A stretch of 64,000 nt of DNA from a phage: the sequence record PZ386972.1; one strand, written 5' to 3'. A model generated the notes under the pieces. It did not search any database, was not told the origin of the DNA, and saw nothing but the letters and a program-made list of their open reading frames with translations. Positions 43,335-61,256 of this stretch are shown here, piece by piece; positions within the stretch are counted from its first letter, which is position 1, and every line of letters starts with the position of its first letter. The translations under genes were made by a program, and so were the position numbers.

Positions 43335-43363
43335 ATTATACAGAAAAATTTTCCTGAAAGCAA
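43335..43363 (-). promoter_or_regulatory. strong early promoter matching the T5 PN25 sequence (TTGCTT, 17 bp, TATAAT, then CATAAATTTGAGAGAGGAG)
   Basis: minus-strand sequence TTTATTTGCTTTCAGGAAAATTTTTCTGTATAATAGATTCATAAATTTGAGAGAGGAG recognised from memory as PN25. Confidence 0.8.
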
Positions 43364-46997: not shown

Positions 46998-47390
46998 TCA
47001 TTCATCATTTAATCCTGGAACATAGATCCCAACACGATTTAATTGTTCTTTAGCTTCTGCGAGAATATCTGGAGTGTACTCCCAAATATCGTCTTCCACC
47101 TGTAAAAGATGGGAAGAACAACCATCATGCGGCACACGACATATGGCCAAACCACGTGGATGGAACAAAGAGAAATTTAGGGCAACAATTAAACCCATAG
47201 CAGACAACTCATTCCAATCCAACTCCCATTCCCCCGCGTAGCCGGATAGGAAAACACCAACACAGGGATCATCTATTTGCTGCTCCGGAAAAGTGAAGGA
47301 GGCTTGTCTTACCCCCAACCAACGTTGTAGCAGCTTCTCCGCACGTTTCACCAAACTAGGATCAATCTGACGCCAATATACTTGTTCCAT
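46998..47390 (-). CDS. hypothetical protein, tandem paralog A
   Basis: 130 aa; shares PCVG ... GEWELDWNELS.MGL..ALN..LF.P ... VPGL pattern with 47400-47828. Confidence 0.45.
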   Translation of the reverse strand: MEQVYWRQIDPSLVKRAEKLLQRWLGVRQASFTFPEQQIDDPCVGVFLSGYAGEWELDWNELSAMGLIVALNFSLFHPRGLAICRVPHDGCSSHLLQVEDDIWEYTPDILAEAKEQLNRVGIYVPGLNDE

Positions 47391-47399
47391 TCTGCCTCC

Positions 47400-47828
47400 T
47401 TAAGCAGTTAAACCTGGGATCATATACCCGAAACGTCGAAGTTTCTGAATCCCATCATTTACTTCTTCCGGTGAGTAAGACCAACCGTAACGTTCATTAA
47501 CCTGAAAACCAGGAGATTCACTAGTTTTATAGTTAACAACAAGGCGATGCTTAGCAGGCATAAACAGCTTATAGTTTAACGCAAAAACTAAGCCCATTTC
47601 ATCTAACTCTTTCCAGCCGACAATTTCTTCAAGACCCTCCTCTACCTGAACAATTAAACCAATACAGGGAGCCTCATCAATATCATCTTTAAAAGCAAAG
47701 GAGATTTCGTTATTCTCACACCATATTTTCAAAGAGTTAATAGCCTCATTATATAGGCTAGCTGGGAGAGTACGCCAAAAGTTAACCAAAATTGGGTTAG
47801 CTTCTTTAGAGAATACATTATTGAACAT
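47400..47828 (-). CDS. hypothetical protein, tandem paralog B
   Basis: 142 aa; paralogous to 46998-47390. Confidence 0.45.
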   Translation of the reverse strand: MFNNVFSKEANPILVNFWRTLPASLYNEAINSLKIWCENNEISFAFKDDIDEAPCIGLIVQVEEGLEEIVGWKELDEMGLVFALNYKLFMPAKHRLVVNYKTSESPGFQVNERYGWSYSPEEVNDGIQKLRRFGYMIPGLTA

Positions 47829-47830
47829 AT

Positions 47831-48337
47831 TTACACCTTAAATTGCTGTAAGGATTTACACATTTCAAGATCCGGACTAAATTCTAGCATATAGCTAACA
47901 GCTTTTAAATCTTGAAGATTTATCCCAGTCCTACCGTTGACTATAACCGTTGGATACTGATACATCATAGCACCCGCATCATCAAGCACACACCAATGTT
48001 TGAGCTTATGCTTTTCAACGAAGCGAAGAACAGAATTACCCCTAGATAATCCACCTCCAGTAAAATCCGTTGTACCAAGAAAGCGATCGATAAGACCTAA
48101 TCCGGTCATAATCTGAACGTTCTCCATCTCATTTCTAACAGAGAACCAAGATGATACCCCAACAATCATTATTGGGGAAGGACGAATAAAGTCCTGAAAA
48201 GCCTTGAGAAGTGGTTTGAAAACCCAGTCACTTCCAAAGAAAATCTTTTCATCATCAGGTGCATGATGGTGGGAGATGCTCGAATTGAGCACCCCATCAA
48301 TATCTAGAAAAATAATTGGAGTATTACTTATTTCCAT
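47831..48337 (-). CDS. HAD-superfamily phosphatase (putative nucleotidase)
   Basis: 168 aa; N-terminal IIFLDIDGVLN matches HAD motif I. Confidence 0.55.
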   Translation of the reverse strand: MEISNTPIIFLDIDGVLNSSISHHHAPDDEKIFFGSDWVFKPLLKAFQDFIRPSPIMIVGVSSWFSVRNEMENVQIMTGLGLIDRFLGTTDFTGGGLSRGNSVLRFVEKHKLKHWCVLDDAGAMMYQYPTVIVNGRTGINLQDLKAVSYMLEFSPDLEMCKSLQQFKV

Positions 48338-48506: not shown

Positions 48507-48682
48507 ACCTGTTTCTCCTCATCTCCAGAGGAGAACCACATATTATCCGTAGTATAGATAATTTTATATGTGTATCCCAACCGTTTTCTTACACTAGGAA
48601 ACCTGTAGGCAAACCTATAACACCAAGTGCCAGACTCAGTTATAAAAATATCCCATTCATTATTTCTTGCTTCTCGACACAT
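48497..48682 (-). CDS. small hypothetical protein (WCYR-motif paralog 2)
   Basis: 61 aa; DIFITESGTWCYR. Confidence 0.35.
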   Translation of the reverse strand: MCREARNNEWDIFITESGTWCYRFAYRFPSVRKRLGYTYKIIYTTDNMWFSSGDEEKQVCP

Positions 48683-49478
48683 AAGGTCTACCCTCTAAAT
48701 GAGCTTCTACACGAGCAATAAAATCAGGATCACTGAAAGCATCTACCGCACCCTTACTCCAATAAGGGATACTACGTTCTTCCAGCTGGTACATCTCACT
48801 ACGAGTCATACCCTGATAGCCTGGCTCCGCTGCTAGGGCACTATCATAGTAGTTAACTACCATAAATTTCGCAGCAGTCCTATTAAGAACAGGAAATAAT
48901 TCCCAGTAGAAGTTAATTACTTGGTTAGAGCAACCAACCACAACGATCATATCTTGGCTGGTAATACCATCAAAAACATTGTACATTTCTGCATATGCTG
49001 GAGCATGCTCTCCAAAGAAGATTACATTAGGTTTAACCCATTTATAATCATCTGGATCAATAGAAGTATATCCTACATCAATAACCAGTTTATTGCTACT
49101 ATTGTAGCTATCAGCTACAACAACCTCTTTTAAATATCCGTGAATGTGCAGAATGTCACTATGTGGAACGCCAGCACGCTCAATAAGGTCATCGACGTTG
49201 GTAGTCAAGTTTACTACTTGACCTGGATATTGTTTATACCATTCACCAATACGCAAATGCGCAAGATTGGGTTCAACAGTTTTTAGCTCTTCACGACGCT
49301 TGTTGTAAAACATATGGGTTTTATGATAAAAATTACCACGAAAGGCATGAATATTACATACTTCTTCTAGATCATAATCATCCCACAATGCTTTACCACT
49401 AGCAGTATCAGTACGAAAAGCTCGTACACCACTTTCAACACTCAAACCTGCACCGCTAATAATAATTAATCTACGCAT
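48660..49478 (-). CDS. Sir2-like (sirtuin family) NAD-dependent deacylase / ADP-ribosyltransferase, zinc-ribbon cysteines absent
   Basis: 272 aa; SGAGLSVESGVRAFR, TTNVDDL, HIHG catalytic His, VVVGCS align to sirtuin motifs; no CxxC pairs in the zinc-module region. Confidence 0.7.
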   Translation of the reverse strand: MRRLIIISGAGLSVESGVRAFRTDTASGKALWDDYDLEEVCNIHAFRGNFYHKTHMFYNKRREELKTVEPNLAHLRIGEWYKQYPGQVVNLTTNVDDLIERAGVPHSDILHIHGYLKEVVVADSYNSSNKLVIDVGYTSIDPDDYKWVKPNVIFFGEHAPAYAEMYNVFDGITSQDMIVVVGCSNQVINFYWELFPVLNRTAAKFMVVNYYDSALAAEPGYQGMTRSEMYQLEERSIPYWSKGAVDAFSDPDFIARVEAHLEGRPYVSRSKK

Positions 49479-58821: not shown

Positions 58822-59103
58822 ATGATTTCAGCCAAAGAAGCTCAAGAACTTGCAGGATTAACAGAAGTACCCGCATTTCTAAAGTTTATAGAAGAAAAGA
58901 TTGTAGAAGCTGCTAAGTCTGGAAATACAGAAGTAATTATTCGAGATAATCCTTACGCTAGGTGGCTATATAATCCTAGAGAAATGCCAGGAGCAGCTAA
59001 ATCGGTACTAAAAACCTTATCGGATAAGGGGTATCATCTCTCACAATACTACCGAGAAGCCGCCTTTGTAGACATGGGTCTTAAAATTAGTTGGGAGGTA
59101 TAA
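58822..59103 (+). CDS. hypothetical protein
   Basis: 93-aa ORF. Confidence 0.45.
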   Translation: MISAKEAQELAGLTEVPAFLKFIEEKIVEAAKSGNTEVIIRDNPYARWLYNPREMPGAAKSVLKTLSDKGYHLSQYYREAAFVDMGLKISWEV

Positions 59104-59579: not shown

Positions 59580-59599
59580 TAAATAAATTAAAAATTTTC

Positions 59600-59628
59600 T
59601 TGCTTAAAGCCACCTAATTTAGTATAAT
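59600..59628 (+). promoter_or_regulatory. early promoter (TTGCTT, 17 bp, TATAAT)
   Basis: read directly; GAGGAGG RBS downstream. Confidence 0.6.
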
Positions 59629-59655
59629 ATTCGTATTGAAAGTGAGGAGGGCTTT

Positions 59656-59940
59656 ATGCGAATTTATAACTCAAATTCATTAGGATTTAAACCATTGAGA
59701 AAACGTGCACAATCACCTCGTCAAATAAGAAAGGCTAATATTGGTGAGCCAGAAACACGTCTTCCACCTCCTCCAGAACAACGTTTAGTTTATCTGGACG
59801 AAGAATTAGCTGAACGCGAAAGAAAAGCTCAAGAAGAGATTGAGCGTAAGAAAATGTGTACTGCCCCAGCCTACTCCAAAGGGGCTTATCAGTATATCTA
59901 TACAGCCGAAGAGGCCAAAGATGCGGGGCGTAAAAAATGA
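59656..59940 (+). CDS. hypothetical protein
   Basis: 94-aa ORF co-transcribed with NADAR gene. Confidence 0.4.
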   Translation: MRIYNSNSLGFKPLRKRAQSPRQIRKANIGEPETRLPPPPEQRLVYLDEELAERERKAQEEIERKKMCTAPAYSKGAYQYIYTAEEAKDAGRKK

Positions 59941-60386
59941 AGATTACTGAATTTAAAGGTGCTTATAGTTTCTTATCTAACTTTTATTTATCACCAATTA
60001 CTTTCGAATATCTGAATGAAATATGGCATGCTGATACTGTAGAACATGCTTTTCAGGCTATGAAATCCGACCAAAAAGATGATGTAGCTCATGTACTACG
60101 CTCCCTAAATGCAGGAGTTGCTAAACGTAGAGGACGTAAATTAATTCTACGCTCTGACTGGGATAAGGTAAAAGATGATGTAATGTTAGAGCTTTTACGG
60201 TTAAAGTTTGCAATCCCTGATTTGAGAGACAAACTGTTAGCAACAGAAAATGCAACTTTGATTGAAGGAAATACCTGGGGGGATACATATTGGGGTGTTT
60301 GCCGAGGCATCGGGGATAATACTTTAGGAGTTCTTTTGATGCAGGTAAGGTCTGAAATTAAAAGAAGCTTACAGTTAATAAATTAA
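59937..60386 (+). CDS. NADAR-family (YbiA-like) protein; putative ADP-ribose N-glycosidase
   Basis: 149 aa; YSFLSNFY, EHAFQAMK, LLATENATLIEGNTWGDTYWG align along the length of E. coli YbiA. Confidence 0.7.
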   Translation: MKITEFKGAYSFLSNFYLSPITFEYLNEIWHADTVEHAFQAMKSDQKDDVAHVLRSLNAGVAKRRGRKLILRSDWDKVKDDVMLELLRLKFAIPDLRDKLLATENATLIEGNTWGDTYWGVCRGIGDNTLGVLLMQVRSEIKRSLQLIN

Positions 60387-60394
60387 AAATTCAT

Positions 60395-60423
60395 TTGCTA
60401 AACGCTTCAAATTCTCGTATAAT
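60395..60423 (+). promoter_or_regulatory. early promoter (TTGCTA, 17 bp, TATAAT)
   Basis: read directly. Confidence 0.6.
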
Positions 60424-60461
60424 ATACTTCATAAATTGATAAACAAAAAGGAAAATAAATA

Positions 60462-60977
60462 ATGGCTAAGCAGAAAAACGCAAAAACTCAAGCAGCTCCG
60501 GCAGTTAAAACTTTCCCCCAGACTGAGGCTAACCGCAAAGCTCGTCTGGAACGCCACCTGCGTAAGCATCCTACCGATGCTCAGGCTGCGCAAGCACTGA
60601 ATAATCCGGCTCCGATTCGTCAAAAGCCGAAGGCTAAGAACGCTACTCGTTCTGTAGCCCGCCTTGTGACCTATGTACAGGGTTACGGTCACAAATCTGT
60701 TCCCGTAGCACTGAGTTTCAATGCTGGAGCAGAATTGTTCCCTCGTAATGGCATGGCCATGAAAGATTATGAGAAAGCAGTTAACCAGAAACGCAAACCA
60801 ACGGCAGATGTATTGCGTGATACTCGTGGACAGTTTGGTTCTGTTAAGCCAAATATCTTTGGCGTAGAGTATAGTAAAGATAATGTTCGTGCTCTGTGTT
60901 ACGGTGTAGGCATTAAGTTCACGGGTGATTCTGCTCGTAAATCTGCTAAACCAGCTCGTAAACGTAAAGAGAAGTAA
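60462..60977 (+). CDS. hypothetical basic protein
   Basis: 171 aa, Lys/Arg-rich termini. Confidence 0.45.
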   Translation: MAKQKNAKTQAAPAVKTFPQTEANRKARLERHLRKHPTDAQAAQALNNPAPIRQKPKAKNATRSVARLVTYVQGYGHKSVPVALSFNAGAELFPRNGMAMKDYEKAVNQKRKPTADVLRDTRGQFGSVKPNIFGVEYSKDNVRALCYGVGIKFTGDSARKSAKPARKRKEK

Positions 60978-61040: not shown

Positions 61041-61256
61041 ATGTTCTCTAAGAAACCACGTTCTGTTACTGAAATCGTTGCTTCCTTTACCACTATCACT
61101 GATGAGCTTCAAGCTCGTATTGAGGCTGATCAAAAAATTGCTGCGGATATTCAGAAACAGCAGGAAGAACTCGCTTTAAAGTTGGCTGAAACCAACAAGA
61201 GTGAAAAATCTGCCCAAACTATTATGGAAAATATCCTTAAACTGCTGGGCAAGTGA
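61041..61256 (+). CDS. hypothetical small coiled-coil protein
   Basis: 71-aa ORF preceded by AAGGA RBS. Confidence 0.4.
   Translation: MFSKKPRSVTEIVASFTTITDELQARIEADQKIAADIQKQQEELALKLAETNKSEKSAQTIMENILKLLGK

Follow-up and report, generated by a model that had tools for sequence, protein, structure and literature searches.

The open reading frame (ORF) at positions 59937-60386 of the phage DNA analysed here (sequence record PZ386972.1; the whole stretch of 64,000 nucleotides is called the window below) encodes a minimal NADAR of the YbiA core, in essence the AdfN(Bas32) protein already described in the literature, and it very probably acts by undoing DarT1 guanine ADP-ribosylation of phage DNA. 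The function is not new, since it has been reported for a protein with a single residue different, and to that extent the gene itself adds little. What is new, in a modest way, is that this NADAR gene is an accessory insert, present in some genomes and absent from others, at a site that can be defined by comparison with phage T5, that a second and independently placed NADAR allele is present in another T5-like phage, that a deletion allele of the gene appears to have been generated between 13-nt repeats, and that the 94-aa protein encoded immediately upstream is a member of a large family of small phage proteins that has no annotation and no relation to NADAR.

The window is from a T5-like phage (Demerecviridae, Markadamsvirinae). 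Numerous T5-like Escherichia and Salmonella phages are 95-98% identical to the region in DNA; matches to some part of it occur in 442 phage records, of which 93 cover 80% or more. Genes on the same strand are ordered thymidylate synthase, a 93-aa ORF, RNase H, the 94-aa ORF, NADAR, DUF7022 and an Rv2179c-like exonuclease, and the genes around NADAR are rnh, thy, frd, nrd and unknowns. Riboflavin genes are absent from this neighbourhood, and no DarT/ART gene flanks the 149-aa NADAR ORF, whose neighbours are rnh, the T5.090 orthologue and the DUF7022 gene. The two ORFs that the initial annotation had placed here are both present on the plus strand, and they are listed with the other features of the locus as follows:

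48660-49478, minus strand: Sir2 gene (PF02146, 87 bits)
59582..59630, plus strand: T5-type early promoter with -35 TTGCTT at 59600-59605 and -10 TATAAT at 59623-59628, preceded by an A/T-rich element
59656-59940, plus strand: 94-aa ORF with ATG start, T5.090 orthologue (phrog_4593), a core small protein of T5-like phages
59895..60384, plus strand: accessory segment of ~490 nt that holds a variant 3' end of the 94-aa ORF and the whole of NADAR and replaces ~46 nt of T5
59937-60386, plus strand: NADAR gene, 149 aa with ATG start, identified by Pfam match, fold and near-identity to AdfN(Bas32)
60074-60086 and 60170-60182, plus strand: two exact 13-nt direct repeats, AAAAGATGATGTA, inside NADAR
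60377..60425, plus strand: next promoter, the counterpart of T5 P-H207, with -35 TTGCTA at 60395-60400 and -10 TATAAT at 60418-60423
60462-60977, plus strand: DUF7022 gene, driven by the promoter at 60377..60425

A NADAR protein nearly identical to AdfN(Bas32)

The 149-aa protein is a genuine NADAR family member. The initial annotation had read it as a NADAR along its length and had proposed an HMM search as a check; that search gave a match to the Pfam NADAR profile PF08719 of 77.2 bits (E=2.3e-21), well above the gathering cutoff of 35.1, which spans residues 9-142 of the protein and positions 9-163 of the 163 in the profile, i.e., its whole length. A further match is phrog_1017. The AlphaFold2 model of the protein (built on 28 homologues, pLDDT 97.3) contains two beta-hairpins and six or more helices and has the YbiA-like fold, an alpha-helical core flanked by two small beta-sheets. 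In Foldseek comparisons the model superposes on E. coli YbiA (2B3W, TM 0.83) and on the ADP-ribose-bound P. nicotianae NADAR (8BAU, TM 0.79), and its match to the DarT1-linked G. lovleyi NADAR (8BAT) is weak (TM 0.52, E=0.7). The top matches among the sequences of solved structures are E. coli YbiA (E=7e-15, 36% identity) and 8BAU (E=1e-6). The best match in NCBIfam is TIGR02464, the riboflavin-intermediate N-glycosidase family, at 65.4 bits (below its cutoff of 73.7), and the match to NF053876 (anti-phage DS32_2) scores 43.6 bits against a cutoff of 240. PADLOC gave a weak PDC-M42C match (27 bits) for the NADAR protein and none for the 94-aa ORF or the Sir2 gene. Deposited orthologues bear the names "GTP cyclohydrolase II", "swarming motility protein" and "ribA/ribD-fused", all of which are transferred labels.

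Three residues matter in NADAR proteins: one Glu (E88 of E. coli C7 and E43 of P. nicotianae), one Lys that binds phosphate (K95 and K50, respectively) and a third, acidic residue, whose position is occupied by Glu in the YbiA subfamily (E125), by Asp in DarT1-linked NADARs and by His in T4-type proteins (Schuller et al., Mol Cell 2023). E36, K43 and E110 of the window protein align with P. nicotianae E43, K50 and E125, and the first two, which lie in the motif TVEHAFQAMK, align also with E88 and K95 of E. coli C7; E110 sits in the motif LIEGNTWGD and is the Glu that defines the YbiA subfamily. An alignment of 28 diverse homologues shows no variation at six residues (E36, K43, K63, E110, D116 and W119), and neither do eight full-length T5-like copies of the protein. 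Alignment and structure together point to E36, K43 and E110 as the catalytic residues; loss of such residues had been named in the initial annotation as an outcome that would refute its reading, and all three are intact in the alignment. The protein is thus a minimal NADAR that consists of the YbiA core and carries the YbiA-type Glu, and it is predicted to act as a guanine-ADP-ribose DNA glycohydrolase.

The window protein is identical at 148 of 149 positions to bas32_0066 of phage Bas32 (IrisVonRoten; QXV80247.1), the sole change being I70T, and at 146 of 149 to the protein of Bas33 (HildyBeyeler). Position 70 is a variable column of the alignment, with I70 found in other natural copies (HASG4 and locus L018), and the protein of phage HASG4 is 100% identical to that of the window. 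The Bas32 NADAR was found via DELTA-BLAST in the BASEL collection and named AdfN(Bas32) (Johannesman et al., bioRxiv 2024; Nat Commun 2025, PMC11825919). In uninfected E. coli it is able to neutralise the toxin DarT1; when expressed ectopically it allows T5 (used there as a DarTG1-sensitive phage), RB69 and Bas25 to plate at full titre on DarTG1 hosts; it does not rescue T5 on hosts with the thymidine-modifying DarTG2; and, unlike the T4 AdfN, it acts without an additional phage factor (PMC11825919). Its authors place it near two archaeal NADARs (PMC11825919). T5 itself is without a NADAR gene (NC_005859). The published evidence for AdfN(Bas32) comes from ectopic expression, and we found no Bas32 or Bas33 deletion and no in vitro assay in that paper, which was also the only one returned by our literature search on Bas32 with DarTG.

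The initial annotation had proposed that the gene is a counter-defence against DarT-type toxins. This reading is supported, and was already known, because AdfN(Bas32), one residue different, has been published as a DarT1 neutraliser. Fold and residues alone would not have predicted such an activity, because E. coli YbiA acts on guanine-ADPr in vitro and yet fails to rescue DarT1 toxicity in cells; the antitoxin-like activity of the clade therefore rests on experiment and not on fold. Rescue and toxin neutralisation have been shown in the literature for the one-residue-different protein, and by analogy with it the window protein would be expected to do the same.

Promoters, accessory insertion and the upstream gene

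The NADAR gene had been credited in the initial annotation with a strong early promoter of its own. A promoter of strong T5 type is indeed present at 59600-59628 (TTGCTT-N17-TATAAT), but it belongs to a core gene: in alignment with NC_005859 it coincides with the promoter that is annotated in front of T5.090, and so it is present in T5, which has no NADAR. A generic sigma-70 scan missed this site, whose TTGCTT fits TTGACA at three of six positions. The window has 13 occurrences of the pattern TTGCT-N18-TATAAT, where 0.03 would be expected by chance, and each of them is on the same strand as the genes around it; the copy at 43335-43363 has the sequence of promoter P-N25. The next promoter downstream (60377..60425) aligns to the feature "promoter P-H 207" of NC_005859, and the two promoters (59582..59630 and 60377..60425) form a 49-nt direct repeat that is 76% identical. 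No terminator-like site was found between NADAR and this next promoter, so the unit is bounded by promoters only. The NADAR gene thus lacks a promoter of its own and, to judge from these motifs, would ride by read-through on the transcript of the T5.090 orthologue, and promoter motifs and context likewise point to early timing and co-transcription of the two genes. The stop codon of the 94-aa ORF and the start codon of NADAR overlap as ATGA. The 94-aa ORF has a strong ribosome-binding site (GAGGAGG); NADAR is probably translationally coupled to it, as it has at its own start no more than a weak G-rich stretch and the ATGA overlap.

In the T5 reference the order is rnh (T5.091), the annotated promoter, T5.090, P-H207 and T5.089 (the DUF7022 protein). 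Blastn comparison of the window with T5 places the breakpoints of the accessory segment at 59894 and 60385, the downstream junction being at the counterpart of P-H207. By tblastn, 96 phage records have this NADAR at an identity of at least 95%. Among 27 T5-like IMG/VR loci, five have NADAR and a distance of 525 nt from the 94-aa ORF to DUF7022, and the other 22 have no NADAR and a spacing of 86-88 nt. NADAR is thus accessory: roughly one in five T5-like genomes has it, and it was gained between T5.090 and P-H207. Where it has been kept, the variable codons among the full-length copies (20 synonymous-only and nine amino-acid-changing) fit purifying selection.

The 94-aa ORF product differs from T5.090 (92 aa) by one residue (S74N) across the first 80, and the final ~14, being encoded within the insert, diverge. 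This variant C-terminal tail always accompanies NADAR. The tail of the window type is nearer to the consensus of the wider family than is the T5 tail, which suggests that the segment arrived by recombination from a lineage that already had this arrangement.

The family to which the 94-aa protein belongs extends far beyond NADAR. Tblastn finds it in 551 phage records, including phages of Klebsiella, Serratia and Stenotrophomonas, and a profile search gave 619 cluster representatives, all of them small stand-alone proteins. The window protein has the conserved C-terminal motif ELAERE..AQEEIERKK.CTAPAYSKGAYQYI..GRK, and among the representatives the motif reads ELAERE..AQEEIERKK..APAYSKGAYQYI..GRK. 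No Pfam family was assigned to this family, a profile search of PDB sequences was empty at E<=5, and no NAD-related family was matched when 33 members were compared with Pfam. One Pfam match of the 94-aa ORF, to NADase_NGA, was rejected as due to chance (E=0.076, 13.2 bits versus a cutoff of 30.5, over 34 residues of charged helix). The AF2 model is poor (pLDDT 69, pTM 0.29) and shows a disordered basic N-terminus, one helix and a beta-hairpin. A search of the literature on T5.090, T5.089 and T5.091 returned nothing relevant.

Other arrangements are found at the same locus. In Salmonella phage UTK0009, rnh is followed by a second NADAR allele (60% identical) and then by the T5.090 orthologue; the stop codon of this allele lies within the -35 hexamer of the T5.090 promoter. 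In Serratia phage Kamaji, the place of NADAR is taken by an 85-aa ORF that is unrelated to it. Another T5-like genome (locus L014, protein P0002) carries a 96-nt in-frame deletion within NADAR that removes residues 48-79, including K63 and R67, and falls exactly between the two 13-nt repeats. Recombination between the repeats would account for this allele, which is probably inactive. A broader proposal is that the rnh-DUF7022 interval of T5-like phages is a swap site for counter-defence cargo at which NADAR was gained at least twice, that the YbiA-type NADAR with Glu110 acts on more than DarT1 damage (e.g., on cytidine-ADPr or RNA ADP-ribosylation), and that the T5.090 family may be an early host-takeover or anti-defence factor; we regard this as speculative and, taken as a whole, rather unlikely.

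Proposed role and its alternatives

The mechanism that we favour is as follows. When a DarTG1 host is infected, DarT1 would ADP-ribosylate guanines in the phage DNA and replication would be blocked; the NADAR, made early, would hydrolyse the N-glycosidic guanine-ADP-ribose bond, with E36, K43 and E110 positioning the distal ribose and the pyrophosphate; and the restored template would then allow the phage to replicate. Observations that run against this explanation are that YbiA, the nearest solved structure, has a housekeeping role in riboflavin metabolism and does not rescue cells from DarT1, and that the window protein has the YbiA-type Glu and not the Asp of the DarT1-linked antitoxins.

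The Glu at position 110, together with the closeness of the protein to YbiA in both sequence and fold, bears on the substrate. YbiA-type and general NADARs strip cytidine-ADPr from DNA and RNA, and all NADAR families tested strip guanine-ADPr from RNA. According to Johannesman et al. (PMC11825919), removal of ADP-ribose by a NADAR is possible whichever toxin placed it there. A broader substrate range is therefore possible for the window protein, since YbiA-type NADARs also remove cytidine-ADPr, and its main natural substrate could be some other ADP-ribose conjugate (cytidine-ADPr, RNA guanine-ADPr that other ADP-ribosyltransferases of the host have made, or soluble signals derived from ADP-ribose), with DarTG1 as one facet only. 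We think this quite unlikely to be the case; full rescue from DarTG1 and DarT1 is the one phenotype that the near-identical protein has been shown to have. The same phenotype weighs against the idea that the protein is a YbiA-like housekeeping N-glycosidase that removes reactive intermediates of the riboflavin pathway, a role to which we give almost no weight in spite of the fact that YbiA is the best solved-structure match, TIGR02464 is the best NCBIfam match and the deposited orthologue annotations bear the names given above: the TIGR02464 score falls short of its cutoff, no riboflavin genes are nearby, the deposited names were transferred and are not tests, and YbiA, unlike the near-identical protein, does not rescue DarT1 toxicity.

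The initial annotation had also described the two ORFs as a two-gene cassette, and they could form a functional two-protein module in which the small basic 94-aa protein targets NADAR to DNA or inhibits DarT. The ATGA overlap and shared promoter are in keeping with such a module, as are the variant 94-aa tail that always travels with NADAR and the UTK0009 allele, which also adjoins the T5.090 orthologue, on its other side. However, the 94-aa ORF is a core Demerecviridae gene found in 551 records versus 96 for NADAR, T5 and 22 of the 27 IMG/VR loci have it without NADAR, Kamaji has its unrelated 85-aa ORF in the NADAR position, and all 619 representatives stand alone. Among the distant members, homologues in Stenotrophomonas phages Ps15 and ANB28 (C-terminal matches, via tblastn) appeared at first sight to offer a conserved pair, having overlapping neighbours of NADAR size; these neighbours have no Pfam NADAR match and the candidate was rejected, and metagenomic contigs with distant homologues (P0148, P0149 and P0158) have no NADAR neighbour. 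A functional pair is thus argued against, because distant 94-aa members are not beside NADAR and because AdfN(Bas32) alone neutralises DarT1 in uninfected cells; we consider the module very improbable.

A further suggestion of the initial annotation was that NADAR and a Sir2-like gene together make up an NAD/ADP-ribose toolkit. The Sir2 gene exists, but it is the orthologue of core gene T5.102, found also in T5 that lacks NADAR, and it lies 10.5 kb from NADAR on the opposite strand in a divergently transcribed block, with nothing to link the two.

The preferred reading, repair of DarT1-modified phage DNA, has a practical side for phage therapy and host range, in that presence of the gene predicts plating of T5-like phages on DarTG1 hosts. 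It also means that a genuine counter-defence gene could be identified from raw sequence by a reader of the letters only.

Comparison with known systems

The window protein combines near-identity to an experimentally validated AdfN with the orphan state, being phage-encoded with no cognate DarT adjacent. The closest system is that of AdfN(Bas32) and its Bas33 relative, with which the window shares the locus order (rnh, T5.090 orthologue, NADAR, DUF7022), the ATGA overlap and the flanking promoters; the AdfN(Bas32) protein differs in having T70 where the window protein has I70. AdfN(T4), or gp30.3, is likewise an orphan NADAR encoded by a phage; it reverses the ADP-ribosylation of guanine and overcomes DarTG1. 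However, it belongs to a separate NADAR clade and has a His where the window protein has Glu110. When cells are uninfected it fails to neutralise DarT1, and its best performance is during T-even infection, whereas AdfN(Bas32) works alone.

The DarG1 antitoxins (BC4488 subfamily; E. coli C7 and G. lovleyi 8BAT) share with the window protein the proposed reaction and the core Glu and Lys. They differ from it in the third catalytic position, which is Asp (D171 in C7) in place of Glu110, and the window NADAR has neither an adjacent DarT nor the N-terminal beta1-beta2-alpha1 extension, beginning instead at the YbiA core. E. coli YbiA (2B3W) is the closest solved structure and has the subfamily-defining Glu and a similar length, but it is encoded in a LexA-controlled operon of the host, whereas the window gene is carried by a phage.

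Small genes around the T5.090 orthologue

The window NADAR gene adjoins the T5.090 orthologue, and the gene content of this neighbourhood differs among T5-like phages. The genes concerned, other than the window NADAR itself, are the following:

Window 59656-59940 (+): T5.090 orthologue, 94 aa, phrog_4593
Window 58822-59103: 93-aa ORF, phrog_5321, between thymidylate synthase and rnh
Window 61041-61256: 71-aa ORF, phrog_2380, just downstream of the NADAR neighbourhood
L013 2501-2950: second NADAR allele, Salmonella phage vB_SenS_UTK0009 (OQ359889.1)
L006 2779-3036: 85-aa ORF, Serratia phage Kamaji (ON287373.1)

The UTK0009 NADAR allele, 60% identical to that of the window, has rnh and the T5.090 orthologue as its two neighbours and is on the opposite side of the latter from the window NADAR. 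Its final codons and stop form part of the T5.090 promoter (upstream element and -35 hexamer); the allele looks like a separate gain within the same short interval. The Kamaji ORF, which is unrelated to NADAR and has no match in Pfam or PHROG, takes the place that NADAR has in the window, where it overlaps the stop codon of the T5.090 orthologue; this place may be a cargo hot spot. The 93-aa ORF (without a Pfam match) is a further variable small gene near NADAR; a gene is annotated in the thymidylate synthase-rnh interval of Bas33 (bas33_0067) and none in that of T5 or Bas32. The 71-aa ORF is an additional presence/absence gene, found in the window and Bas32 at a position that has no annotated gene in Bas33 or T5.

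T5.090 itself is part of an extensive family that lacks annotation and has 619 representatives when clustered at 50%. Every member is a small protein that combines a basic N-terminus of variable sequence with a C-terminal motif of ~45 residues showing high conservation; the genes are often found among those for nucleotide metabolism and replication (nrd, thioredoxin, RNase H, gp32). Two records named "Listeria phage" are likely wrongly labelled or contaminant sequences: OR848833.1 (3.5 kb) has 97.1% DNA identity to T5-like window sequence, and OR847649.1 (2.1 kb) is 100% identical to the window 94-aa protein.

Differences among NADAR copies

Window 60074-60086 and 60170-60182: two exact 13-nt direct repeats, AAAAGATGATGTA, within NADAR
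L014 2501-2854: NADAR deletion allele, T5-like contig, SRR10680568
L001 3638-4087 and L002 2138-2587: NADAR genes of Bas32 and Bas33, compared between records

The L014 allele carries a 96-nt in-frame deletion that falls exactly between the two repeats, and its product is probably inactive, since residues 48-79, including K63 and R67, are missing. The Bas32 and Bas33 proteins were called identical by Johannesman et al. (PMC11825919); in GenBank, two substitutions (A9T and E104K) separate them.

Sir2 labels and T5-type promoters

Window 47831-48337 (-): T5.105 orthologue
Window 48660-49478 (-): true Sir2 gene
Window 47400-47828 and 46998-47390: two DUF7415 proteins, after the T5.105 orthologue

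T5.105 is labelled "Sir2 (NAD-dependent deacetylase)" in the T5 record. The window orthologue does not match Sir2; its match, at 73 bits, is to PF18143, a HAD domain present in Swiss-Army-Knife RNA-repair proteins.

The 13 T5-type promoters (TTGCT-N18-TATAAT) span 35231 to 63621, with a switch from the - to the + strand that falls between about 49.9 and 52.1 kb and, judged from promoter orientation, would mark a point of divergent early transcription. The promoter at 43335-43363 (-) has the sequence of promoter P-N25.
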